From: Carcharhinus amblyrhynchos
Lineage: Eukaryota
Direction: 5' to 3'
Assembly (NCBI GenBank): GCA_965287045.1
Contig: OZ336875.1
Coordinates: 29,574,001-29,638,000 of the forward strand
Length of the DNA: 64,000 nucleotides
Part shown: one piece after another, positions 20,281 to 57,996 of the stretch
Layout of the letters: every line of letters begins with the position of its first letter
Position numbering within the stretch: the first letter of the stretch is position 1
Program-made: the position numbers and the translations under genes
Notes under the pieces: generated by a model
Told to the model about the DNA's origin: nothing
Databases searched by the model: none
Seen by the model: only the letters and a program-made list of their open reading frames with translations

Positions 20281-20388
20281 AATAAAATGCTGCAGGTGCT
20301 GGAAATCTGAAATAATAGCTGAAAATGTTGGAAAAAGTCAGCATGTAAGGCAGCATCTGTGGAGAGAGAATTGGAATTAATGGTCAGA
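20281..20388. mobile_element. Penelope-derived repeat, single arm
   Basis: tgctggaaatctgaaat...gcagcatctgtggagagag is shared with 30708, 47421 and 51477. Confidence 0.6.
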
Positions 20389-22714
20389 ATCTTAGCTGTC
20401 TTTGTGCTGGCAGGATTTTCGGTCCCGCTGTGGTGAAGACATTTGGTTGGGCGCCAGTTTTCCTGTCCTCACTACAACAGGAGCAGGGCATGAACAGCCA
20501 GTAAGATTGCGTCCAATGTTTCAAGCTGATGACCTTTTTTATCAGAATGACACATGGTTGTGTAGGATCAGAGTGCTGTAAATATGGTATGTCAAACTGT
20601 CCTGCCATATCGTTTGTTCATTGGCAGATTGAATTAACTGGTTTATTTAGTTTTATTAACCTGCTAAAGTTGTAGTTTCGTAGCTTAAGAGAAAAACTCA
20701 CCAAAGCTGCTGGAGTGCTCCCTTCCACTCCCACTTGCACTAAATTTCAGACTTTAGTATTCTTACCAAGCTACTCGGTTCTGCTCACACAGAATCAATT
20801 CCCTGACTAGTATCAGAAATTGTATTCCCCATATTTGGGAACATGAACAACCTAAATAATTTGCATTAGTCTACTTCAACCAGTGTATAGAAAGGGGTAT
20901 CATTTTTTCATATTTTCTAAGCATGCTGCATGTTATCTTGGTTTTTTTTCCCACCATCATGTTCTTTTTGCCACCATCACGTTCAAGATGTCCAATCTCA
21001 TACTAGTTAATAGCTGTTCTTTATCTATGTTCCTCTTTATAACTGACATCATGCAGGGGTTTATTAAGTGGTCTCAACTTTTGGAATGAGGTTGAAGAAA
21101 AACATTTTGTTTTATTTCCATTATCAAATGTCTTTTTCTTTCAAAATCATCTCGCATTACACATAATGGGCTTACCCCGTAGCCTTGAAAGTACACCGAC
21201 AGTCTACTCACAGGCCTCTTGAAGTGCTGTTGTCGAAATTGCTGCCAGAGGCATTACAGAAGTGAGTTAGGGTAACTTTTTAATGCATTTTTTTTTTAAG
21301 TGATATTTGACTTTCAGCCACTGACTCTCTGACAGTATGGGAAAGAAGGCACACTTGGAAAGAGCAGACTGTTGTCATCAGCATCTGTACTAACACTAAC
21401 AGTATGAATGAATGTTGTGAACACTGAACTTTCCATCTCTCTTGCAGCAATGAGCTGGCATTCTTCCAGTTCCATTCTTTTCTCTCTGCTTAGAGACTTG
21501 CATATCAGACACTTATACACAAATGTGGCTCCAATGTAACTGAGAGGCCGTGCATACCTTCACAGCAGGAAATGCCAGCTTGTAAGGTGATTTGGCTTGA
21601 AGTCAACACAAGCTTATCCTGATCCAAGAGATTTATGATTCAGTTGTTGTTTTAAAAAAAAATTGTTTCTGGCTTAAGTATACAGTTGTCGTGTTTCTGG
21701 ATTTGTCATAATGTTACAATTGGGAGGCCTGAATCAGTCACAGAAGCAGTTCAACAACACAAAATATGGCTTTTGATAGAGCAAAGTTTTTGGTGGATTG
21801 AAACAATAGGTTTGCATTCTTTATGTGTGACCTCTTACATTTTTCTAATGTGATCCAACCAGGGATGAGACATGGCTTCAGCATTTCCTGATTAATGATC
21901 CACACATTGTAGTCGTCAAGCTTTCCTTTCAACAAATCTGAGTTCTTGTTCAGCAAGGGCACGTTTCCTGTTTTGTTAAAGCTGCTTGAGTTAGCTTCAA
22001 ACTCCCCAAGAAAATACCATGCGAAATGCACTTTCAAAGTTGTTCCCGGCAACTGAATTGTTTTTTTAGATTTTTTTAATCCAAAAGTGTCTAATTTCCT
22101 GTCATTACCATGCTTAACATTCCAGAGCAGCAACCAGCTGTTTTATTTTTCCCTCTTTGGGTGACACTGAAGTAGACACCATCAAAACAATATATGGTTC
22201 AACGAAGATCCCCGATTCCCTAATGAGTTGAGATATTAAATATATGTGAATTGTCCAGAGCTGTGAGACGGGAATTTTTAAGGTGTTTTTCACCAGGCAA
22301 GTTTTTAAACTTTAAATGTAATTGTTAAAGCTGCAAAATGGAACTTTCTTCTGTGCCGTCTGGTGTCAAAATTCGGCACACTACCAGCTTGATAAACCTA
22401 GCAAGAGACAGCTTTCAGAGTAAATGTCCACTCTGGTCTACCTCGCATCTCAAAGAAATGTGTCTCGTCTGAGTTTATTGAATTATGACTATACGTTACA
22501 TGGATTATAATGGAGACCAGATCTGCATACTTTTTAAAAAGGCAATAAAATTGCTCACATTGATGCCAATTCCAATCTCTTTGAACAGTCTTGCATTTAG
22601 AACCAGAGGAACTAATTGGAATTGTCCGTCTTCCATATTTTTTCCAATTTCTATTTGCACTTTTTTTAAAAAAAAATCACTAGTTTGCATGTAAAATCTC
22701 TATGCATCATGCCT

Positions 22715-22950
22715 TAGGTGGTGCAATTTGATTCCTGGTATGGATGACTGTGCACAGACAGTCTCCCCATGTTTGCGTGTGTTTCTTTGGATGCTCTGGT
22801 TTCCTCCCACATTCTGAAAGACATGCTGGTCAGGTGCATTGGCCACACTAAATTCTCCCTCATTACCCAAATAGCGCTGGAGTGTGGAAACTAGGGGATT
22901 TTCACAGTAGCTTCATTGCGATGTTAATGTAAGCCTACTTGTGACCTAAT
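22715..22950 (+). mobile_element. V-domain SINE with alternative (non-CR1) tail
   Basis: V-domain (gctctggtttcctcccacattctgaaagacatgctgg) followed by ctaggggattttcacagtagcttcattgcgatgttaatgtaagcctacttgtgac; same family as the 50995 copy. Confidence 0.8.
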
Positions 22951-25189
22951 ACTTAATTACACATTATGCAGGTTATTGAGCATTATAGTCAAGGTTTCGC
23001 CAAGCCTCTTAAGAATTGATCGATTTTTGTTACCTTTTATGTTTTGATTAGAAATACTTCACCTCAGCACACCATCCCATACTGTATATCTGGATCCAAA
23101 CCAGGTAAAATTGTACGAGTGTGGCACCTGAACAAGTGCTTAAACTGAACGGGCAGCTTGCACATGACGTTCAATTTTTATTTTACATGAAATCAGTTGA
23201 CAACAAACTTTTGTTATCCTCTTCTCATGTAAGCATCACTTTCGGCCAAATCTCCAATACAATCTGTATGAAAAGAAAAGGAAGCCTTGGTTGCAGTGAC
23301 CAGAATACATAAGGATATCCACCAATTGTCCCTGTTTTAAAACCTTTTGTGAATACTTTGTTTCCTGAGAATAAGAAAAACATGTTAATATGCAATTATT
23401 TAAGTATTTTTTTAAGGCTATTAAGCACAACAGTCTATTTAACTGTAATTACTTGTACGAATAATTGGCCGGGCATTGGCTGGGAACCTACCTTCTTTCG
23501 CAAGTGGGAATGTTTGGAATTGCCAATTTGTGCCCTTGTACATGTTTATGTAAAATATGAACACAATATTCACACCATAGAAGACCAGATGATAGTTTGT
23601 CCATGTGTTTGCTATGCTAAGCAGTGGCACATCTTTCTCTCCACTCCTTCCCTGGCTCCAACCATCTAAAATTAAATAAACAAGAAGCCTAATTGTTCTA
23701 GGCTGTTACTTTGTCACCCCCAGCAATGTTTGTTCAGCACTGGGGACATGGCGTGCTTCCTGAAAAGTCCAAAGAAAAGGAAGAAACTCAAAGCAAGTGC
23801 TCTTTTTTAAGTTTAAAAATTAACTGTGTGTACCAGGAAGAGGCCACTTCTCAGCTATGTTCCTCGCATATGAACATGACCTCCATGATATGAACTTTTA
23901 ACAGTAACAATACGTTTTAAAAGTCAGAAGTTTTATCCTGTCTTTTTCGTAACAGTTGCTTGCACAGTTACTTTTTGGTCAGAGATTTTTGTGTTATGGA
24001 GACTTGCACTACGAATGATTCTTATGCCGACAGTTTCCTGAACACAGGAAATTTTACTGCTTGAGTAGGAAATGAGAAAGCACAAATTACCAACCAAGGC
24101 TGGTTTCCTTTGGTGAAAAGTGAATTGCTCTGCAAGTATTTGGGTGTGCTAATTGCTCTTTGTTTAAAAAAGTAGGTTTTCATTATTGGAGTTGTCCCTT
24201 ATCTAAACTTGCTATTAAATAGATAATCTTAGTCTACCTAACCTCTCCTCAGAAGAGCCGGAATGTCTTAAACCCACTATTAAACTACACATCAGTTTTT
24301 ATGTGGACTTGTTCCCTGTTGCTCATTGTGTAAATGACCATTAGACTCATTGTAGCCTGCGTATAAATCAGGTGTCTGTTTCTGACTGTTGGGAAAAGTA
24401 GACGAATGAACTAACAGGCAGTAGAAAATGGTGGCTCTTCAAGCCAGCCAACAGAGGGAAGTTTAACACGTGTAGATCAAGCCATTTGCGACTTGAGAAA
24501 CCTTTTGATACTTGAAACCAGCCAGGAATGGGCCAATGTGAATAATGGCTGGTGGGAGCTCTTGTCAAGAGGAGCACAATTTAAGAAGGAGCAGAGATTC
24601 TAGAGAATGTTGGGAGATTGGAGACACAATATAAAGGAGCAGGAGCCAAATCAAGTATGAGTGAAATCCAGTAAGTGATATGAGTGACTTTGTAACACAC
24701 AAAATGTGTAGAAACAGAAAACTACAGTGAGTATACTGGTAAGCTTTCAATGTAACTGTCAATTGTAATCTTGAGGGTTGCAGATAATGAGTTGCATAAA
24801 ATAATTTCCGTTAACCCCCTTGTATGATAAAGGCAGCACCGGAGATGACGCTCATTGGGATGTAGCTGATTATTTAAGTTTTAGTTTAATGCTCCCATAA
24901 ATAAGTCAGACTTTGGTGTGCACACCTGCTCCATGTCTTGTCTTGTGTTCTGGATGACCAGAAGTGTCACAACAGGTTGAGAGCTTTGTAGCTGGTACGT
25001 TTATATATGAGGCTGTCCACAGCTTATGGTTGGAGACAGTGTGAGAATGGGTGACAACCTCCCAATTAAAAAGAATCACAATGAAGGAGTCCCCCGAGTG
25101 TATCCTACTCTCCCAGTCTGCAACGTGTTGCTTCCCTGGTGCTAAGTTCAAAACATCAGTGACTTGAGATGATTGGCAAAAGATGTGGC

Positions 25190-26211: not shown

Positions 26212-28660
26212 CAAAGAACTAAATCAGCCCGGGAAACAGGCCCTTCGGCCCAACGAGCCCGTGCTGCCATCCCAACACCACCAGTCCACCTCTCTACCCA
26301 TGACCCGTTTCTAATGTTTTATGGCCATCCAGATTGAGGGAAACTGATTTAGGGACAATTTATTCCTGCCAATCAGCCTAACAGCACATCTTTGGGGTGT
26401 GAGAGGAAACCCATGCAAGTACGGGGAGAATGCGCAAACTCCCACAGACACCGGCCCAAATCCATGTGTCTGCATAGCAATCAGCGATGGTCACTGAGCT
26501 GTCGTCTTGCCCAGTATCTTGTCCAGTTTAGGCACACACTAATAATATGAAGCACTAGGCCAATCTCAAACAACCAAGAGCAACCCCAGTACGACCCATC
26601 GTGTGTATGCCCCTCGTTGGGCACGAGGTGGACCGACGTAAAACCTGTGAATGAAAAGAGGAAAAAACATTATTATCATACTATACCCATTTACATTACC
26701 AGGGACGCCCCAATGCTAATGACCTTTTATTTAAAAGGTTCTCCTATATCCACCCATCTCCAACTCAGTTATGTGCCTGTCTAAGTTACTCTTAAAGGAC
26801 TCTAGCGTGTTTGCCTCCACCACCTTACTTGGCAGAGCATTCCATACCCCCACTACCCTCAGTGTGAAAAACCTCCCTCTAATACCTGTGTTGTACCGCT
26901 CCCCCCTCACCTTAAGTCCATGGCCCCTTGTCCTATGTGCCTGTATTATAGGAAATAGCTTACCTCTGTTTACTCTATCTATACCCTTCATAATCTTATA
27001 TACCTCTATTAGATCCCCCCTCAGTCGGTGTCTTTCAGGGGAAAAGAGCCCCAATTTCTTCAATCTTTCCTCATACCCCAGTCCTTCCATACCAGGCAAC
27101 ATCCTGGTAAACCTCCTCTGCACTCTCTCCACAGCCTCCACGTCCTTCCGGTAGTAAGGCGACCAGAACTGTACGCAGTACTCCAAATGAGGCCTAACCA
27201 ACGTTCTGTACAACTGCAACATTAGACTCCAGCTCTTGTATTCTATACCCCTTCCTATAAAGGCTAACATACCAAAGGCTTTCTTCACCACACTCTCCAC
27301 TTGCACTGCCACCTTCAAAGACTTGTGCAGTTGCATCCCCAGGTCTCGCTGCGACTCTATACTCCTTACAGGCTTACCCTTTATCATATAACTTCCTCCT
27401 ACGTTATTCCGGCCGAAATGCATCACCTCACGTTTATCCAGATTAAACTCCATTTGCCACGTATCTGCCCAATCAACCAGCCTATCAATATCCTGCTGTA
27501 TTGCCAGACACTGCTCCTCACTGCCTGCCAATCCAGCCATCTTGGTGTCATCAGCAAATTTGCTGATCACACCACCTACTCCCTCTTCCAAATCATTTAT
27601 ATACACTACAAAGAGAAGAGGTCCCAGTACCGAGCCCTGCGGCACACCACTAGTGACAGACCTCCAGCTAGAAAAAGACCCCTCCACTACTACTCTCTGA
27701 CTCCTCTTTGCAAGCCAGTTCTCTACCCATCTAGATACCTGACCACATATCCCATGAGCTTTAATCTTCTGTACCAACCTACCATGAGGGACTTTGTCAA
27801 ACGCCTTACTGAAATCCATGTAGACAACACCAACGGCTCGTCCTTTGTCAACTGTTTTTGTCACCTCCTCAAAGAATTCTACCAGATTCATAAGGCAAGA
27901 CTTCCCCTTGACAAAGCCATGCTGCGTATCCTTAATCAGATCGCAACGCTCCAAGTGCGCATACATCCTATCCCTAAGAATCCTCTCCATCAACTTACCT
28001 ACCACTGACGTTAAGCTCACTGGCCTATAGTTACCTGGGCTATCCCTCCTACCCTTTTTAAACAACGGTACCACGTTCGCTATCCTCCAGTCCTCTGGGA
28101 CCTCCACCTGTGTCCAAAGAAGAGACAAAGATTTGCGTCAGAGGCCCAGCAATCTCATCCCTCGCCTCTTGAAGCAGCCTAGGATAAATGCAATCAGGCC
28201 CCGGAGATTTATCGGTCTTAATGCCCTCTAAATGCCCTAACACTACTTCCCTCGTAATCAATAGATCTTTCAATTGGTCTACCGCTCCCTCAATGACCGT
28301 ACTAGACATCAAGCCCCTCTCCTTCGTGAATACCAACGCAAAGTATTCATTCAGGATCTCCCCCATTCCCTCTGCCTCTAAGCACAATTCCCCACGTCTG
28401 TCCCTGAGAGGACCGATTTTACCCCTAGCCACCCTTTTGTTCTTAAGATAGGAGTAAAACACCTTTGGATTCTCCTTAACCCTACCTGCCAAAGCCATCT
28501 CATGCCCCCTCTTTGCTCTCCTAACTCCCCGTTTGAGATCCCTCCTACTCTCTCTGTATTCCTCCAACGCTCTCTCCGTTCCCAGCTGCTTAGACCTGAC
28601 ATACGCCTCTCGTTTCTTCCTAACCAGGTCTTCTATATCTCTAGTAATCCACGTTCCCTA
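26212..28660 (-). mobile_element. Young 5'-truncated CR1 LINE with RT domain and extended 3' UTR
   Basis: ORF2 is split between 28058..28567 and 26731..28128 by one frameshift near 28104; motifs YRPVSLTS, DFSKAFD, GVPQGSVLGP and FADD; tail gggccgaagggcctgtttcc. Confidence 0.97.
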
Positions 28661-30313: not shown

Positions 30314-30471
30314 GTTACGAACCACATTTCCATATAGCGACCACTCCACCAATCCAGGTTATGTTTTGAGTCCTGTTATGCTTCATCGCGATATGAATGG
30401 AGAAAATGCTAGTGTGAAGGTCTCCATAGAAATTGAGGAGTTTCGGGAGCCAGTCACATTCACCTGTGATG
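30314..30471 (+). CDS. PIK3C2A: PIK3C2A coding exon 3 (start of Ras-binding domain)
   Basis: [21 protein letters not shown]...[23 protein letters not shown]; 158 bp, phase 2 to 1; tag/gtgag borders. Confidence 0.96.
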
Positions 30472-37429: not shown

Positions 37430-40400
37430 AGAATCATAAAATGGTTATAAAACAGAAGGAGGCTATTCAGTCCATTTGTCTGTGCTGGCCGTTTTGAAGG
37501 TGCAGTTCACAAAGTGACACAACCCTGCTTTTCCCCCAAATCTCTTTTCCAACAATGATTCAATTCTCCCTTGAAGGCTCAAGTGACCCTGCTTGCGTCA
37601 TACTCCATATTTAAAAACGTTTTTTAATTCTCCTCATGTCTCCATTGTTTCTTTTGCCAGTTACTTTAAATCTATGCCCTCCAGTTCTTGATCCTTGCAC
37701 CACAGGAACTTTTTCTCCCTGTCTACTTCATACGAAGCCTTTATAATTTTAAATACCTCTATCCCAGCTTCTGTGAACTTCCTGTCAAAAACAGCCCCGA
37801 CTTCTCTCCTCTTTCTACATAACTGAAGTTCCTGATGCTTGGAACTAGTCTTGTGAATTGTCTGCGCTTGTGCTAATGCCATCACGTCCTTTTAAAGCAT
37901 TGTCCAGAACTGGGTGTAATACTTCAGTAGTGGCCGAGCCAGTGACTTTTACAAGTTTAAATTAACTTCATTCCTTTTGTACTCTGTTCTGTTGATTTAA
38001 AAGCCGAGGATACTGAATGCATAATTAACTGTCACCTTCACTGACTTGTGCTAAGATATACCAAGGTCCCTCCGTTCCTACGTTTCCTTTGGAATTGCAC
38101 CCTTTGTCTCTCTGGATTCTTCCTGCTGATGTGAATTACTTCTCACTTCTCTGTATTAAATTTCATCTGAGACTGTGTTCTCATTCCACAAACCTGTCTA
38201 TCCTACTGCACTGTCCTCCTTTATGGTTTGCAATAAATCTGCAAATTTTGACATTGTGTCCAAGGTCTAGGTTATTAACATGAAGAGCAGGGGAGCTAAT
38301 ACCTACGCTAGGGACCTCCACTATAAACGTTCCATATGTCAAAAACAACCATTCACCTCTGTTTTCTGTTGTTCAGCCAATTTCATATCCAGGTTGCTAA
38401 TGTCCCTTTTGTTTCATGAGCTTTAATTTTGCTCATAGCTCTGTTGTGCAGCACTTTATCAAACACCTTTTTTGAAAGTTCATGTACGCTGCATCAAGAG
38501 TATTTCGCTCATCAACCTTTTCTGTTATGTCATCAAAAATGTAAGCATAATTTGCATGCAACAAATCCAAGCTGATTTTCCTTAACTAGCCTACATTTGC
38601 TCAAGTGACAATTTACTTTGACCTGGATTACTGTGTCTTTTTTCAGCACTAAGATTAAACTGACTTGGTGGTTGCTGGGCTTAGCTTGAAACCTTTTTAT
38701 TTGAACAAGGTGGACTATTTGCAATTTCTACCTGAATCTTAAGGAAAGTCAGTTCCTCCTGAAATTTCCATCCTTGTTTTCTTCAGCGTCCTCGGATGCA
38801 TTTCATCTGCTCTAAGTGCCCTGTCAACTTTAAGTACTGACAACCAATTCATTGCCTCCTTATCAGTATTAAACCCACTTATTGCCTGAACTACCTGCCC
38901 TTTCACCATGACATGGGCAGGTGCAAATTATTCACTTAATGCCTCAGCCATGACTCCTGTCCCCATGCATAAATGCCTTTTTATCCCTTCCCCTGGGTGG
39001 GCTTTGTTAGAGGGAGGTCTTGCCTTACGAATCTGGTGGAATTCTTTGAGGAGGTGACAAAAACGGTTGACGATGGGAGAGCCGTTGATGTCACCTATAT
39101 GGATTTCAGTAAGGCGTTTGACAAAGTCCCTCACGGTAGGCTGGTAGAAAAGGTTAAGGCGCATGGGATACGAGGCCAGGTAGCTAGGTGGATTGAGAAC
39201 TGGCTGGGAAATAGGAGACAGAGGGTAGTTGTGGAGGGTACCTTGTCGGGCTGGAGGCCAGTGACCAGTGGTGTGCCGCAGGGCTCGGTACTGGGACCTC
39301 TCCTCTTTGTAGTCTACATAAATGAGTTAGAAGAGGGCGTAGGTGGTGTGATCAGCAAGTTTGCTGATGACACCAAGATGGCAGGGTTGGCGGGTACTGA
39401 ACTGGATTGTCAGGTGATACAACAGGATATAGATAGGTTGGTGCAGTGGGCAGATGGCATTTAATCCTGACAAATGCGAGGTGATGCATTTTGGACAGAA
39501 TAATGCAGAGAGGAGCTATGTGATAAAAGGTAGGCCGATTTAGGAGTATAGACGTACAGAGGGACCTGGGAGTGCAGGTTCACAAATCCATGAAGGTTGC
39601 GTCACAAGTGGAGAACGTTGTTAGGAAGGCTTATGGGATGTTAGCCTTTATAGGAAGGGGCTTAGAGTATAAAAGCTGCCGTCTAATGCTTCAGTTATAC
39701 AGAACGTTGGTTAGACCGCATTTGGAGTACTGCGTCCAGTTCTGGTCACCTTACTACCGGAAGGACGTGGAGTCTCTGGAAAGGGTGCAGAGGAGGTTTA
39801 CCAGGATGTTGCCTGGCATGGGGGGACTGGGTTACGAGGAGAGGTTGAAGAGACTGGGGCTATTCTCCTTGGAAAGACGGAGATTGAGAGGGGACATGAT
39901 AGAGGTATATAAGATACTGAAGGGAATAGATAGAGTTAATAGTGAGAGACTGCTCCCTAGACTGGGTACGAACACGAGAGGTCATCACTTAAGGGTGAGG
40001 GGGGGGAGGTATAATTTGGAGGTAAGAAGAAGGTTCTTTACGCAGAGAGTTGTGGGGGTCTGGAATGCGCTACCGAGTAGGGTGGTGGAGGCAGGAACGT
40101 TGGACTCGTTTAAGATGCAGTTAGATAGGCACATGAGTGAAACGAGAATGGAGGGATATGGTAGGGGCTATTAAATTAGGGTTAAACCTCGGGAGACACC
40201 GGAAGGGCAGGCTGTATGATTAATATTTTTTGTCTTTATTCCACAGGTGGAGGTCCACCTCGTGTCAAGCGAGGGGCATGCACACGGCAGGCCGTGCGTG
40301 GGCTGCTCTTGGAAGTCCAGGAGTGGCCTAGTACTTCATGTCGGTGTGTGTGCTTGATCCTGGACCGATAGACGGGCGCCACAACAGCTCAGTGACTAGC

Positions 40401-41700
40401 ACTGCTAGCTGTGCAGATACATGGATTTGGGCCTGTGTCTGTGGGAGTTTGCGCATTCTCCCTGTGGTTGCGTGGGTTTCCTCCGGGCGCTCCGGTTTCC
40501 TCCCACACCCCAAAGATGTGCTCTTAGGCTAATCGGTTTCTACCAAATTGACACTATTTCTTCCCTGAATCTGACTGAGTAGGGTCCCATTCGTAGACAT
40601 GCAGGGTAGAATAGGTGTAGGATGATGCGGCGGCGCGGGCTCGTTGGGCCGAAGGGCCTGTTTCCCATGCTGGGTTGTTCTTTGTTCTGGGCATTTCATC
40701 TCTCCAGTATAGCAATGTGCTCTTTAATCAATATTGACACCCCTTCTTCCTTTTCTATCTTTCGTGAACAATTTGTATCCAGTATTATTTGATTTCCAGC
40801 CCTGTTGCCACAACTTAATATGTGCATATGGCTATTTGCATCTGGAACTCAGTAATCTTATTTACCACAATCCATGCATCCACATACATGCACTGTAATA
40901 ATTTAAACTTTATCTATTCCCTCTTATGTTGAATCCACTTTAATATTTCCTACTCTAGCGCTTTTTGTTTCGCCTTATGCTCTTTGCTCCTTGATGACCC
41001 TCTCTCTGGTATTCCCTCCTGGTTCTTTACCCATGTCAAGTTAGTTTAAACCTTCCCCAGTAGCACTAACAAATTGTCCCAGATAGGTTGCACTGATGGA
41101 GCCAAGAGCAATTTCTAACTGGCCCATACAAGCCCCATCTTTGCCCACAGCTAATCCCTGTGTCCCAAGAATCTGAAGCCCTCCCTCCTGCACCATCACA
41201 CAGCCACGCATTCATCTCCTCTGTCCTTCTATTTTGTACTTTGGCGTTGTAATGGGAGCAATCTGTAAATGACTACTTTTATAATCCTGCTTGTGAATTT
41301 CCTACGTTTGGACCACAACCACTGTTCACTCTCCCTCTGGTTGCTTTGTGACATACTTGACCCTGCTAACAGAGAGACAATATATTATCTTGGATTGATG
41401 TTTGTAGTTGCAGAAATGCTTGTCTGTTCCCTGAACTATTGAATTGTCTATTGGTATTTCTGTTCCAATCTTGGTACACTGTCCTGCCCACAACACCTTC
41501 CCCACCTCTTTTACACTGAGCCAGTAATGGTGCCATGGATTTGATTCTGGCTACACTTGTCAGATTTGTGTATCACTTCCACCAATATTCAGAATTCTAC
41601 ACTGGTTGGAGAGCGAGAAGCAACTGGGTTTCTACTGCTCTACCTGCATTTTATTTTTCTTGACTACCTGGCTGTCGGCCATTCCCTCTATGCCTGCATA
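37430..41700 (-). mobile_element. Old, decayed CR1 LINE interrupted by a younger CR1
   Basis: Reverse 3' tail gaatcata...cagaaggaggctattcagtcc at 37430; RT remnants to ~38990; 5'-part remnants resume after 40690. Confidence 0.7.
38998..40688 (+). mobile_element. Young 5'-truncated CR1 LINE with extended 3' UTR
   Basis: ORFs 38973..39464 and 39572..40174 carry DFSKAFD, GVPQGSVLGP, FADD and RPHLEYCVQFW; frameshifts near 39455-39545; 3' UTR is homologous to the 26212 element. Confidence 0.97.
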
Positions 41701-42000
41701 CTCTTTTAGAATCATAGAATCTCCACAATGCAGAAGGAGGCTATTTGGCCCATCGAGTCTGCATCAACTCTCTGGTACCTGGTCATCTTCCCTAATGCTT
41801 AAGTGACTTGGTGTCATTTTGTTATATAATGCCTCTGTAAAGCACTTCAGGATATTTTTATTACTTTTAAAGGTGCTATATAAATGCAAGTTCTTACTTT
41901 TCAGATTGCATGTTTACATCTTCAGAAATGTAGCTCTAGATATTTCATAAAACATGAAACTTAATTTTACATGTCTGATATTTCTTCATATATATTTCAG

Positions 42001-47420: not shown

Positions 47421-47640
47421 AATAAAAGCAATATACTGGAATCTGAAGTAATAACAAAGTACTGGAAAAACCCAGCGGGTCTGGCACCATCTGTGGAGAG
47501 AGAAACAGAGTTAACAATTTGAGCTCAACATGACTCTTCTACCAAACTTCCGAAGAAGTCACATTGGACCCAAACTCTGTTTCTCTCTTCGCAGTTGCTG
47601 GCAAACCTTGAGTTTTTCCAGCACTTTGTTTTTATTTCAT
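47421..47640. mobile_element. Penelope-derived foldback repeat
   Basis: actggaaaaac...gagagaaacagagtt pairs with aactctgtttctctc...gtttttccagcactttg. Confidence 0.75.
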
Positions 47641-47694
47641 TGTTCTCTGTACTTATAGCTTCAAAAACAGAGTTTTTAAAATTATGAACAGGAT

Positions 47695-49350
47695 ATGAGC
47701 AGTTGATGTAGTCTATTTGAATTTCAGCAAAGCTTTTGACAAGGTCCCACGTGAGAGACTTATAAAGAAGGTAAATGCACATGGGATACAGGGTAATTTG
47801 ATAAAGTGGGTTCAAAATTGGCTCAATTGTAAGAGACAGAGGGTGATGACAGAAGGCAGCTTTAGTATTGGAAGCCAGTGATCTATCACAGGGATCTGCA
47901 CTGGCTCTCCTATTATTTGTCATTTATATAAATGACAGACGATTATGTGGATGGTATGATTAAGTTTGTGATTGACACAAGTTGGCCTGGTGAAATTGAG
48001 TTTCTTGGGCTAAAGGAAGATATAAATGGGATTGTCAAACAGGCACGTTAGTGACAGATGGAATTTAAACCTGAAAAGTGAGAAGTGATGCACTTTGGAA
48101 GGAGGGGCGTGACACTATGAAGTTCTGAGGAATCAAGGGACCTTGATGTGTTTGTCCATAGGCCTCTGAAGGCCATGACAGGGTGGTGAAAAGGGTACAT
48201 GGGATACTTGCCTTTATCATGATGCATAGATTACAAAATAAGAGCAATTATGTTGGAATTGTATGGAACTTTGAGGTCACAGCTGAAGTAGTGAGAGCAA
48301 TTCTTGTTGCCACTTAACAGGAAGGATGTCATAGAGGTTTACAGCATGGAAACAGGTCCTTTGGCCCAACTTGTCCATGCTGTCCCTTTAACCACTACAT
48401 CCCAAATACCCACATTTGGCTGATATCCTTTATACCCATCTTATCTATGTAACATATAAACACTTATACCTGCCTTTACTATTACTTTTGGCAGCTGGTT
48501 CCAGACACTCACCACCTTCTGTGTGAAAAAATTGCCTTTCTGGACACTTTTTTGTATTCCTCCTCTGTCTCACCTTAAATCTATGCCCCTGAGTTTTAGA
48601 CCCCCCTACCTTTGGGAAAGGATATTGACTATCAAGCTGATCTATGCCCCTCATTATTTTATAGACCTTTATAAGACCATCCCCAAGCCTCCTACGCTTA
48701 CGTGGAAAGAAAGCCCAGCTTCTCCTTTTTAATTCAAACTATCATATCCCAGTAGCATCCAAGTAAATCTTTTCTGCACTCTTTCTAGTTTAATAGTATC
48801 CTTTTTCTAATAGGGTGACCAGAACTGTACACAGTATTCCAAGTGTGGCCTTACCAATGTCTTGTACAACTTGTCCCAACTCCTGTATACATATGATTGC
48901 ATTAGAGAGAGAAATTCACCAGGATGCTGCCTTGGGTAAAACATTTATGAAGAGAGGTTGGATAGACTTGGGTTTTTTTTTGTTGGAGCAGAAAAGAATG
49001 AGGGGTAACCTGATTGAGGTGTACTAGATCATGAGGTGCATGGACCAAGTGGATAGGAAGCAGCAGTTTCTCCTTGGTTGAAAAGTCAGTGAAGAGAGGA
49101 TAGGTTCAAGGTGGGGGCAGGAGGTTTGGGGGGATACGAGGAAACTTTTTTTACCCAAAGGGTGGTGACAGTTCAGAATGTGCTGCCTGGAAGGGTGGTA
49201 CAGACAGACTGTCTCACCTCTTTAAAAAGTACCTGGATGAGCACTTTGAACATAGCATTCAAAACTATGTCATGTACTGGTAAATGGGATTAGTTGATTT
49301 AGGTGATTCTCGAGTGTCCACGTGGACTCTCTTGCACTTTGATTCTGTGA
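47695..49350 (+). mobile_element. Decayed CR1 LINE with a nested opposite-strand CR1
   Basis: atttcagcaaagcttttgacaaggtccc (FSKAFDKVP); host breaks at aggaaggatgt (~48330) and resumes at gattgcattagagag (~48895). Confidence 0.8.
48330..48890 (-). mobile_element. Nested CR1 3' fragment
   Basis: Reverse tail acagcatggaaacaggtcctttggcccaac; ccagaactgtacacagtattccaagtgtgg is the reverse of PHLEYCVQFW. Confidence 0.85.
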
Positions 49351-50667: not shown

Positions 50668-50994
50668 AAGGTCAATGATTGTGGCTTTTTTCTTGGTGAA
50701 ACTAAATGCTGTTCTGCTGGCAAGTGCTAAGCATTTTAATTTCAAGTGATAAGTGATTATGAATAAACATAGTGAAGTGTTATTTTAGCTTTGTGAAGCT
50801 GGTACCCTTGAACACAATATTGACTTTGTAGTTTCATTTTCAGTTTTCAGAGTACATGTCATGGAAATAAATCCATATTAGATTCAACTTGAATGAAAAT
50901 TAATTGTATTACAGCCAGTTTAATTGGTGCAGTTATGATGTCCCATAGGGACTATCAGAACAGTATTTTTGAGATTATTCTAAATGCATTAGAT

Positions 50995-51292
50995 ACAGCA
51001 CAGTGGTTAGCACTGCTTCCTCTCAGCTTTAGGGACCTGCATTCAATTCCCAGCTTGGGTGACTGTGCAGAGTTTGCACGTTCTCCCCATGTCTGCATGG
51101 GATTCCCCAAATGCTCCAGTTTCCCCACACAGTGTGAAAGACATCCTGGTGAGGTGCATTGGCCATGCTAAATTCTCTGATTACCCAAACAAGCACAGGA
51201 GTGTGGTGACCTAGGGAAGTTTTCACAGTCACGTCATTGGAGTGTTAATGTAAGCCTACTTGTGACACTAACAAATACACTTTAAATTTAAA
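50995..51292 (+). mobile_element. V-domain SINE with alternative tail
   Basis: Head gcacagtggttagcactgct; V-domain gagtttgcacgttctccccatgtctgc; tail gtgttaatgtaagcctacttgtgacacta. Confidence 0.85.
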
Positions 51293-51476
51293 CTTTGAAC
51301 TTTAAAACATGAACAATAGATAGCAGTAGAAAAATGAAGTGATTTTTGCTATTTTAAAATGTCAACTTTCCAAAAGACAGTATTTACAAAGAATTTTGAA
51401 ACGTTTGTTCTATATTCAAATTTCTGTTCACTGGGTTTTTGCTGTTTAAATGAGTTCAGTTTTGTAAAACTTCACT

Positions 51477-51575
51477 AAACTACTGCAGATTCTGGAAACC
51501 TGAAATCAGAACAGAAAATGCTGGATAAGCTCAGCAGGTCTGTGGAGAGAGAAACAACAGCTAATGTTTCCATGA
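51477..51575. mobile_element. Penelope-derived repeat, single arm
   Basis: aacagaaaatgctggataagctcagcaggtctgtggagagagaaac. Confidence 0.65.
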
Positions 51576-51874: not shown

Positions 51875-52412
51875 ATTCTTTCATGGAACGTAGGTGTCAC
51901 TGACTAGGCTAAAGCTCTAGTTGGCCTCCATTTCAGAGGGCGTTTAAGAGTCAACCACATTGCTGTGTGGATTTTGTCACATGCAAGAAAGCTATTCTTC
52001 TCCGAAGGGCATTATAACAGGAGACAAACACCATCAGTGCCACACAATGCAACGGGCCCTGAGCAGCATAATCGGATGCATAAATGCAATAAATCGCTCG
52101 AAGGAAGAAAGGGGAAGAGAATGAAGAGCCAAACTTGAAGAACTCAGTGTTTTTTCACAAGACTTAATTATAGTGAGCTGTGTCAAATGATGAAGCACAA
52201 AGTGAAGGCTAAGCATCTTCCTACATCCATTAACAAAAATTGAACAATGAGTCATATTTCATGGTCATCGTTAGATTTTTAATTGCAGATTTTCATTGAA
52301 CTCAAATTCCACCATCTGCTGTGGTGAGATTCGAATCCTGGTCCCCAGATCATTGTTCCGGGTCTCTGGATTACTGGTCCAGTGACGGTACCACAGGGCC
52401 ACCACATCCCCC
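51875..52412 (-). mobile_element. tRNA-derived SINE interrupted by a 250-bp insert
   Basis: Reverse B-box gagattcgaatcctggtcccc and head ggattactggtccagtgac; tail ttctttcatggaacgtaggtgtcactg; insert at 52017-52266. Confidence 0.7.
52017..52266. repeat. Inverted duplicate, copy A (partner 57738-57996)
   Basis: acaggagacaaacaccatcagtgccacacaatgca ... gagtcatatttcatggtc is the reverse complement of 57738-57996. Confidence 0.95.
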
Positions 52413-52919: not shown

Positions 52920-53510
52920 GTAATACTCCAATGTATGAGAAAGAAGGTGTGCTAAACCTTTTATTAGTCACTGGTTAAGCCTCACCTGGAGTATGATGAC
53001 CAGTTCTGGCATCACACTAGGAAGAACCTTGCATTCATCACAGTGGAGTTAGGAGAGGGTGCAGAAGAGATTGCTAAAAGAATGCCAGTGAGACGGAATT
53101 TCAATTATGTGGAGAGAACAGAGAAGCTTAAATTGCTCTTAGTGACAGATGGTTAAGAGATATTCAAAATTGAGGGCTCGTTCCCAAATTGATGGGAATA
53201 ATTATCAATAGATCTTTAAGTAGAGGACACAGGTTCGAGATAATGGGCAAAGTAACCAGTGGTGAGATGGGGAGAGTATGCTAATGTAAGGGTGATAGAA
53301 GCAAATCCAATATGAATTTTCAAAGGGGAATTGTATATATATTTGTAAAGGAAACTAATTGCTAGGCTGTGAGGGAAAATTGGGGGCAGAGGATAAATAA
53401 ATCAGAGTTAACATAGGGCAAGGGAGAAGGCTTGGTCAGAGATTCTATCAGAGTTGGTGCAGACTCAATGGGCTGAATGGCCTCCTCCTGCACTGTAGGG
53501 ATTCTTTGAA
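52920..53510 (+). mobile_element. Degenerate CR1 3' part
   Basis: cctcacctggagtat...cagttctgg (PHLEY..QFW); tail gggctgaatggcctcctcctgcactgtagggattct. Confidence 0.75.
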
Positions 53511-57737: not shown

Positions 57738-57996
57738 GACCATGAAATATGACTCATTGTTCAATTTTTGTTAATGGATGTAGGAAGATGCTTAGCCTTC
57801 ACTTTGTGCTTCATCATTTGACACTGCTCACTATAAATTAAGTCTTGTGAAAAGACACTGTTTTCAGAGTTCTTCAAGTTTGGCTCTTCATTCTCTTCCC
57901 CCTTTTCTCCTTGGTGCGATTTATTGCATTTATGCATCCGATTATGATGCTCAGGGCCCATTGCATTGTGTGGCACTGATGGTGTTTGTCTCCTGT
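57738..57996. repeat. Inverted duplicate, copy B (partner 52017-52266)
   Basis: Reverse complement of 52017-52266, with about 9 extra bases. Confidence 0.95.

Follow-up and report, generated by a model that had tools for sequence, protein, structure and literature searches.

Only the tail is known to be shared between the two members of the HE1/HER1 pair. HE1 is a V-SINE of sharks and rays and HER1 is its CR1-like partner LINE, both listed in PMC3747384. The CR1 lineage analyzed here resembles this pair in that a tRNA head, a V-domain and a CR1-type tail follow one another in that order, and its ORF2 is, among named proteins, nearest to those of sharks and rays. Compared by description, it differs in that the whole SINE lies within the 3' UTR of the LINE, lacks a B box and is placed behind an additional splice-acceptor-like site and hairpin. 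BovB lineages are said, in work of Walsh from 2013, to carry pieces of SINEs or of CR1 in their ends; this case would likewise represent an autonomous LINE lineage with another retroposon incorporated, albeit in the RTE clade, and we know of no conserved SINE core in BovB that has been kept under constraint. A human DNA transposon with a captured V-domain is mentioned in PMC5804259, and there, as here, a V-domain left its SINE for another kind of mobile element, where it has lasted; the bearer in that source is a DNA transposon rather than an autonomous LINE, it has no RNA tail role, and the passage on it reports no test of selection. Chimeric insertions of Alu with LINE-1 and of small RNAs with LINE-1 have also been reported (bioRxiv 10.1101/2025.02.02.635956). 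The Alu chimeras similarly join a full-length sense SINE to a LINE in one insertion, but they are described there as individual insertions, whereas the present composite gave rise to two or more active subfamilies and has the SINE as its 3' part. Finally, Ingi-3_AC and R4-1_ADi contain Ceph/RTE-like sequence, that is, SINE-body-like sequence inside a LINE UTR that possibly arose via LINE-SINE recombination (PMC5786205); in contrast to the present lineage, it lies in the 5' UTR, corresponds to the RTE-derived half of the domain, and has neither tRNA head nor tail. The parts (CR1, V-SINE and the HE1/HER1 pair) are known, and precedents for capture exist.

PMC5804259 describes it as a "major enigma" why SINE cores have been conserved for hundreds of millions of years, and lists three hypotheses, all unproven. 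The same text, from 2016, states that conserved SINE domains had not been found in LINEs and discounts the hypothesis of SINE-LINE exchange for this reason; PMC5786205 likewise notes that nothing resembling the conserved bodies had been found. In 2024, the role of the conserved SINE domains was still called unclear (PMC11481361). The CR1 lineage analyzed here is likely a counter-example to the absence of such domains in LINEs. A literature search, with Repbase, Dfam and most subscription papers outside its scope, returned no report of a CR1 carrying a V-SINE in its 3' UTR, and an existing repeat-library entry for the composite is possible.

The window (the whole stretch of DNA analyzed, 64 kb) represents intronic DNA of PIK3C2A. 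One exon in the window matches PI3K-C2alpha with an E value of 6.6e-20, and we take positions 17481-62461 of the plus strand to be the PIK3C2A gene. The remaining exons were chosen from a script listing; they presumably comprise the large first coding exon near 17.5-18.7 kb and further exons at 30314, 35003, 42001, 43347, 46037 and 62294, all on the plus strand. Copy 1 of the composite CR1 (26212-28657, minus strand) is antisense to the gene, and copy 2 (38998-40691, plus strand) is sense to it, within the intron between 35123 and 42001.

The two copies align over 1,746 columns with 75.7% identity. The alignment is colinear through the 3' UTR, and it confirms the order of parts that the initial annotation had proposed behind the ORF2 stop and had also recognized in the CR1 at 38998. 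The UTR common to both copies, of about 515 nt, contains an acceptor-like site, an RNA of about 115 nt that folds as a three-way junction with a long hairpin, and then a whole V-SINE, which comprises in order the tRNA head, the V-domain, a post-V segment and the CR1 tail. The distance from an anchor in ORF2 to the 3' end amounts to 573 nt in copy 1 and 571 nt in copy 2, as compared with 117-178 nt in all five of the other CR1 ends measured (5/5), in agreement with the short UTRs that the initial annotation ascribed to other CR1s of the window. A short 3' UTR is typical of CR1 elements, without being a defining trait. The UTRs of the two copies (26212-26730 and 40175-40691) carry many indels and yet differ by at most 2 nt in total length; this near-equality reflects either chance or a length constraint.

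In copy 1, the ORF2 (26731-28657, minus strand) is 5'-truncated near 28657 and encodes the linker, the reverse transcriptase (RT) and the C-terminal region. Its RT domain matches Pfam RVT_1 with an E value of 1.9e-32. The reading frame is broken once, near 28,100, and ends with the stop codon at 26733-26731, from which the UTR extends to 26212, as correctly placed in the initial annotation. A spacer follows (26672-26730), and behind it a 3' splice-acceptor-like site formed by a pyrimidine tract and CAG (26645-26671), and a structured RNA block (26521-26634) with a closing helix and two hairpins, one short and the other long, at about 80 nt. The embedded SINE begins with a remnant of the tRNA-derived head, which is 17-18 nt short and has no B box (26452-26512), and continues with the V-domain (26384-26451), in which 19 nt of the core are deleted between 26412 and 26411. 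A segment homologous to the post-V part of free V-SINEs and a variable segment (26270-26383) lead to the CR1 tail, a stem-loop with a short remnant of the terminal repeat (26212-26269). All these parts are on the minus strand.

Copy 2 presents the same parts on the plus strand. Its ORF2 (38998-40174) is 5'-truncated, has frame breaks between about 39,455 and 39,540, and terminates at 40172-40174. The acceptor-like site (40224-40246), sense to the host gene, and the structured block (40252-40366) precede a head remnant that starts from the 5' end of the SINE and lacks the B box (40374-40434). The V-domain is complete (40435-40521, core at 40475-40504), and the post-V segment, the variable segment and the CR1 tail occupy 40522-40691. 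The tail ends in two 7-nt terminal repeats, of which about one and a half are found in copy 1; none was called by TRF.

The ORF2 phylogeny places the two copies within one lineage. Among the matches listed, the nearest named homologues are RTs of sharks, rays, turtles and birds (40-65% identity), with 62-64% identity to the named shark and ray proteins, from which the host is taken to be a cartilaginous fish. We take these matches to be of the CR1 clade, which their record names do not state. The best database match is 68% identical, which indicates that the lineage is not represented in the database searched. A tree of nine copies from the window and 20 database proteins, selected from the 120 listed as the closest matches and outgroups, joins copies 1 and 2 as sisters (UFBoot 92), within a clade (UFBoot 98) that includes the named shark and ray proteins and CR1s of the window with short UTRs. 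A decayed copy at 47657 joins the two with a support of 83. The fragment at 48968 that probably continues it ends in a short UTR, and is placed elsewhere in the tree with low support. The old copy (47657-48330, plus strand, probably resuming at about 48910, within a nest that spans 47657-49349) is split by a nested CR1 on the minus strand that runs from 48328 to about 48900.

The divergence between the two ORF2s bears the mark of selection on a working protein. The copies are identical at 306/388 amino acids and at 69/119 four-fold sites, and three methods place dN/dS at 0.15-0.19. Only eight and seven of 122 near-invariant residues carry private changes, so that decay after insertion is at most about 3% per copy. 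The two copies thus stand for sister lineages whose divergence took place during activity, and a single gain of the module on the stem of the lineage is the simplest reading.

The window contains six free V-containing SINE copies in its 64 kb; the tail is of CR1 type in four of them and of a different type in the other two. A profile of about 310 positions, built from the four CR1-tailed copies, matches the UTR of copy 2 over positions 13-295 (E 1.1e-22) and that of copy 1 over positions 65-296 (E 2.5e-18). The match is colinear over the whole SINE, with one 18-nt gap in the head; another aligner gives a 17-nt gap, placed earlier. The V-SINE body noted initially in the UTR is hence borne out by its V match, but it is not a V body alone, since the profile covers the whole element. 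The copy 2 V-domain exceeds all of 500 shuffles against each of the six free SINEs (0/500), and a count by eye gives 68/78 identities with the consensus of the frog V-SINE Racla (supplement of PMC5804259). The V-domain of copy 1, present as first noted, matches apart from the 19 missing core nucleotides, a loss that the initial annotation omitted.

The head is recognized with less ease. On its own, the copy 2 head was equaled by 0/500 shuffles against one free SINE, and by 22/500 and 26/500 against two others, whereas the copy 1 head reached at best 28/500; a head-only profile gives an E value of 0.34 for copy 2 and no match for copy 1, and ARAGORN called no tRNA. At the protein level, the translation of copy 2 aligns with a V-SINE-like peptide from outside the window from the head onward, with a gap of six residues, and that of copy 1 over 13 residues only. 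Judged from sequence, homology of the head carries conviction only when the head is read in register with V, and the decayed tRNA-head-like segment initially reported thus stands in that register while being weak as a match by itself. A B box within two mismatches is found in 4/6 free SINEs and in 0/2 LINE copies, and neither an A box nor a B box occurs within two mismatches in copy 1 or copy 2. The embedded part appears to derive from a V-SINE and to be no working SINE. In each copy, the 3' part of the shortened head can form a helix with the bases at the start of V (26455-26475, minus strand; 40414-40442, plus strand).

At its distal end, the unit most resembles the CR1 at 48328, whose tail it matches in 27/30 columns (0/500 shuffles). 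The last 30 nt score 45-46 against this LINE tail of the window and 18-26 against the tails of the free SINEs; the unit therefore ends in a LINE-type tail. Stringent LINEs recognize their cognate tail only (PMC4176376).

In both copies, the block upstream of the SINE adopts a fold made up of a closing helix and two hairpins, one short and one long, so that the hairpins reported initially are present, as one conserved structure and not as scattered folds. The fold is more stable than that of shuffled sequences in copy 2 (z -4.24, 0/200) and in copy 1 (z -2.07, 5/200). With each copy's own fold taken as the reference, 14/18 changed pairs of copy 2 and 14/16 of copy 1 still pair in the other copy, whereas 6-9 would be kept on average under the null (p at most 0.004); the change is two-sided in only one of 14 kept pairs. 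By the same measure, retention is not above the null in head plus V (4/11 and 6/12) or in the tail (1/3 and 1/2). A search of Rfam with the hairpin block yielded nothing at the gathering threshold (best E 0.24, 18 bits against a cut-off of 106), and an origin from 5S, 7SL or a ribozyme, suggested by resemblance and not supported by Rfam, was not retained.

Splice-acceptor-like sites of this kind occur ten times in 128 kb (both strands), and each copy has one. Under simulated neutrality, the site would be retained by chance in 1.5-13% of cases, and its conservation is suggestive only. A coding exon behind the acceptor was rejected, as an indel of 5 nt sets the two copies in different frames; translation after predicted splicing to the strong acceptor-like site of copy 2 (40246) would stop after 28 codons. 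We also compared the spacer with CR1 tails in search of an old tail relic. In 12 comparisons, the best p value for a tail was 0.052, for the tail of another CR1, and such a relic was not accepted; one of the 12, with the variable segment of copy 2, gave p 0.009 and was not accepted as a relic either.

Conservation between the two copies is unevenly distributed along the UTR. The spacer is identical at 30/49 positions, a neutral level of divergence, and is followed by the acceptor region (20/27), the hairpin block (95/129), the head (42/50), the V-domain (38/43 and 27/28, in two parts), the post-V segment (37/51), the variable segment (30/45), the tail stem-loop (41/45) and the end (12/19). With 65/71 identities in total, V exceeds the four-fold sites of ORF2 (69/119; Fisher p 2.6e-7) and approximately equals its first and second codon positions (688/785). 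It also exceeds the UTR spacers (72/113; p 1.1e-5), so that, for two copies, V is more conserved than the spacer, a comparison that the initial annotation had suggested. Head and V form one contiguous block of 121 nt with 107 identical positions (107/121), which a single recent exchange could have homogenized. Over head plus V, the copies agree with each other at 115/133 positions and with the majority of the free SINEs at only 82/122 and 104/141; the local SINEs accordingly did not convert them, and both copies share LINE-only changes in the SINE part.

The core is, according to PMC4758252, the subdomain of V that is most conserved across animals; its position was fixed by eye against a supplement sequence. 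The core deletion of copy 1 is flanked by 9-nt direct repeats, and 2/6 free SINEs are likewise missing nucleotides around this place, and for these reasons the loss may be specific to this copy and may postdate its insertion. If the master of copy 1 also lacked the core, the latter would be dispensable.

The module very probably moved together with its LINE. The SINE part alone is not flanked by a flush duplication in either copy, and the junction with the upstream sequence is common to both, in accordance with the original proposal that the module travels with the LINE; separate target-site duplications or breakpoints for the two V-domains were not found. Copy 2 as one unit interrupts an older CR1 of the opposite strand (37650-38997 and 40692-40804, minus strand), whose ORF2 is roughly in register on both sides. 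It is flanked by a flush candidate target duplication (40687-40691 = 38993-38997), which is short, at 5 bp; copy 1 shows none.

Searches outside the window returned no further copy of the composite. The exact 31-nt junction pattern was not found in GTDB (0 matches), and a scan with ORF2 yielded nine contaminant-like loci (41-56% identity), several of which have too little flank and none of which shows the V-domain or the upstream block. A phmmer search with the translation of head and V gave eight matches, and the five examined look like translations of free V-SINEs, with the LINE-specific form in none. Translations of the hairpin block recovered 0/142 and 0/1 candidates in two database searches. 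CR1-type RTs also turned up in assemblies of bacteria and archaea, where they lie on short contigs (L001-L008), and under bacterial names (proteins P0006 and P0036); most likely they represent contamination with animal DNA.

We favor a model, with a probability of about 0.6, in which one full-length V-SINE was captured in sense orientation in the 3' UTR of a cartilaginous-fish CR1, the composite retrotransposed as a unit, and V and the hairpin act in cis. Its first part, a single capture followed by mobility as one unit, is very probable, and the idea that a LINE captured a SINE and kept it through subfamily divergence, raised at the outset, is upheld by the sister ORF2s, their divergence under purifying selection and the shared LINE-only changes. 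Selection on V within the LINE is somewhat favored, from a pattern given by two copies, one of which has a broken core. That the LINE domesticated its own parasite, with the Pol III promoter disabled and with V and the three-way-junction RNA maintained by purifying selection as cis-acting elements, falls a little short of even odds. A role of V and the hairpin specifically in RNA stability or RNP loading is a tentative proposal that we hold to be doubtful.

The steps of the favored model can be outlined as follows. A V-SINE would have inserted into the 3' UTR of an active CR1 master or immediately downstream of it, and the two related tails may then have collapsed or been swapped, leaving a unit that ends in the LINE's own type of tail. 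End-to-end template jumping is an alternative route, and a relic of an earlier tail would favor read-through or jumping. The B box and 17-18 nt of the embedded head were lost, presumably after the capture; with the B box absent, no separate Pol III SINE RNA would compete for ORF2p, and the loss may have been favored because an embedded working SINE would be such a competitor. Reverse transcription of LINEs is primed at the tail and accompanied by 5' truncation. As established for stringent LINEs, ORF2p would here bind the distal stem-loop and initiate reverse transcription at this point, with the consequence that every copy carries the SINE and is truncated within ORF2. The lineage then split into the two subfamilies that diverged while active. 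Conservation of V, the refolded head and the upstream hairpin RNA is far above neutral, and is probably the result of a cis action on the LINE RNA, either by stabilizing it or by helping to load ORF2p or a host RNA-binding protein beside the tail.

The main competitor of this model accepts the one capture and considers V a passenger, in which head and V were recently exchanged, either between the two LINE lineages or with some SINE subfamily as yet unseen, V being a recombination hotspot rather than a functional RNA element. The contiguity of the head-V block at 107/121 identities, its lack of a structural signal and the tolerance of core loss by copy 1 are in line with this reading, as is the proposal of conserved SINE domains as recombination hotspots (PMC5804259). 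We consider it unlikely, as the LINE-only changes common to both copies show that the free SINEs present here did not convert them, and the hairpin, head plus V, and tail are conserved as three separate blocks between neutral, indel-rich spacers. Alternatively, acceptor, hairpin and SINE could be, or could once have been, a non-autonomous element of their own. Splicing or read-through transcription by Pol II would have fed this element, and the RT would have attached it to the 3' ends of CR1, a single time or repeatedly, in end-to-end template jumps. The SINE is indeed complete to its 5' end, the module begins in both copies with the rare acceptor-like site, conservation of the spacer is poor, and LINE chimeras with full-length SINEs are known (bioRxiv 2025.02.02.635956). 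However, free-standing copies of the upstream block number zero elsewhere in the 64-kb window, both copies are joined to sister ORF2s at the same place, and the relic of an earlier LINE tail is not significant (best p 0.052), all of which makes this origin quite improbable.

The two readings that dispense with a single capture fare worse. The CR1 3' UTR might be the source of the V-domain or a relative of that source, as the initial annotation had also considered, and LINE UTRs, namely the 5' UTRs of RTE and Vingi, did give rise to some SINE bodies (PMC5786205). Nevertheless, the UTR holds a tRNA-head remnant in register with V, the lineage is nested among CR1s with short UTRs, and V is older than vertebrates, as V-SINEs can be traced to cnidarians and molluscs (PMC4824008; PMC5804259). 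Together these observations set the direction as SINE into LINE, and we reject the reverse as scarcely credible. Two independent insertions of a SINE behind two CR1 copies would draw on the abundance of V-SINEs, with six V-containing copies in 64 kb, but are contradicted by derived characters, since the junction, the upstream block and the head deletion are all shared, and by the missing flush duplication around the SINE part of either copy; this is the least probable reading of all.

The lineage has a value beyond its own history. The synonymous sites of ORF2 offer a built-in neutral clock for the conservation of V, which SINEs do not possess, and the composite allows a cis assay with a single construct from which V can be deleted. 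If domestication is true, a conserved SINE core works inside a LINE, and V serves retrotransposition as RNA, with neither Pol III nor exaptation by the host being required. The conserved acceptor, if genuine, may also let upstream exons splice onto a mobilizable module of hairpin, V and tail. If V is instead a passenger, the lineage still represents a reverse capture, from SINE to LINE.

The window holds additional repeats. A second V-SINE family (22710-22955 and 50993-51279, plus strand) has the head and V of the four CR1-tailed copies and a different tail, which presumably is L2-like; families with the same head and V and different tails represent a tail swap inside one genome. Positions 52017-52266 and 57738-57996 form an inverted pair of repeats of about 255 nt, 93% identical and 5.5 kb apart. 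Extra short repeat families and lone fragments of SINE or CR1 tails occur at 20283-20370, 47436-47504, 51476-51553, 41712-41771 and 53413-53509.
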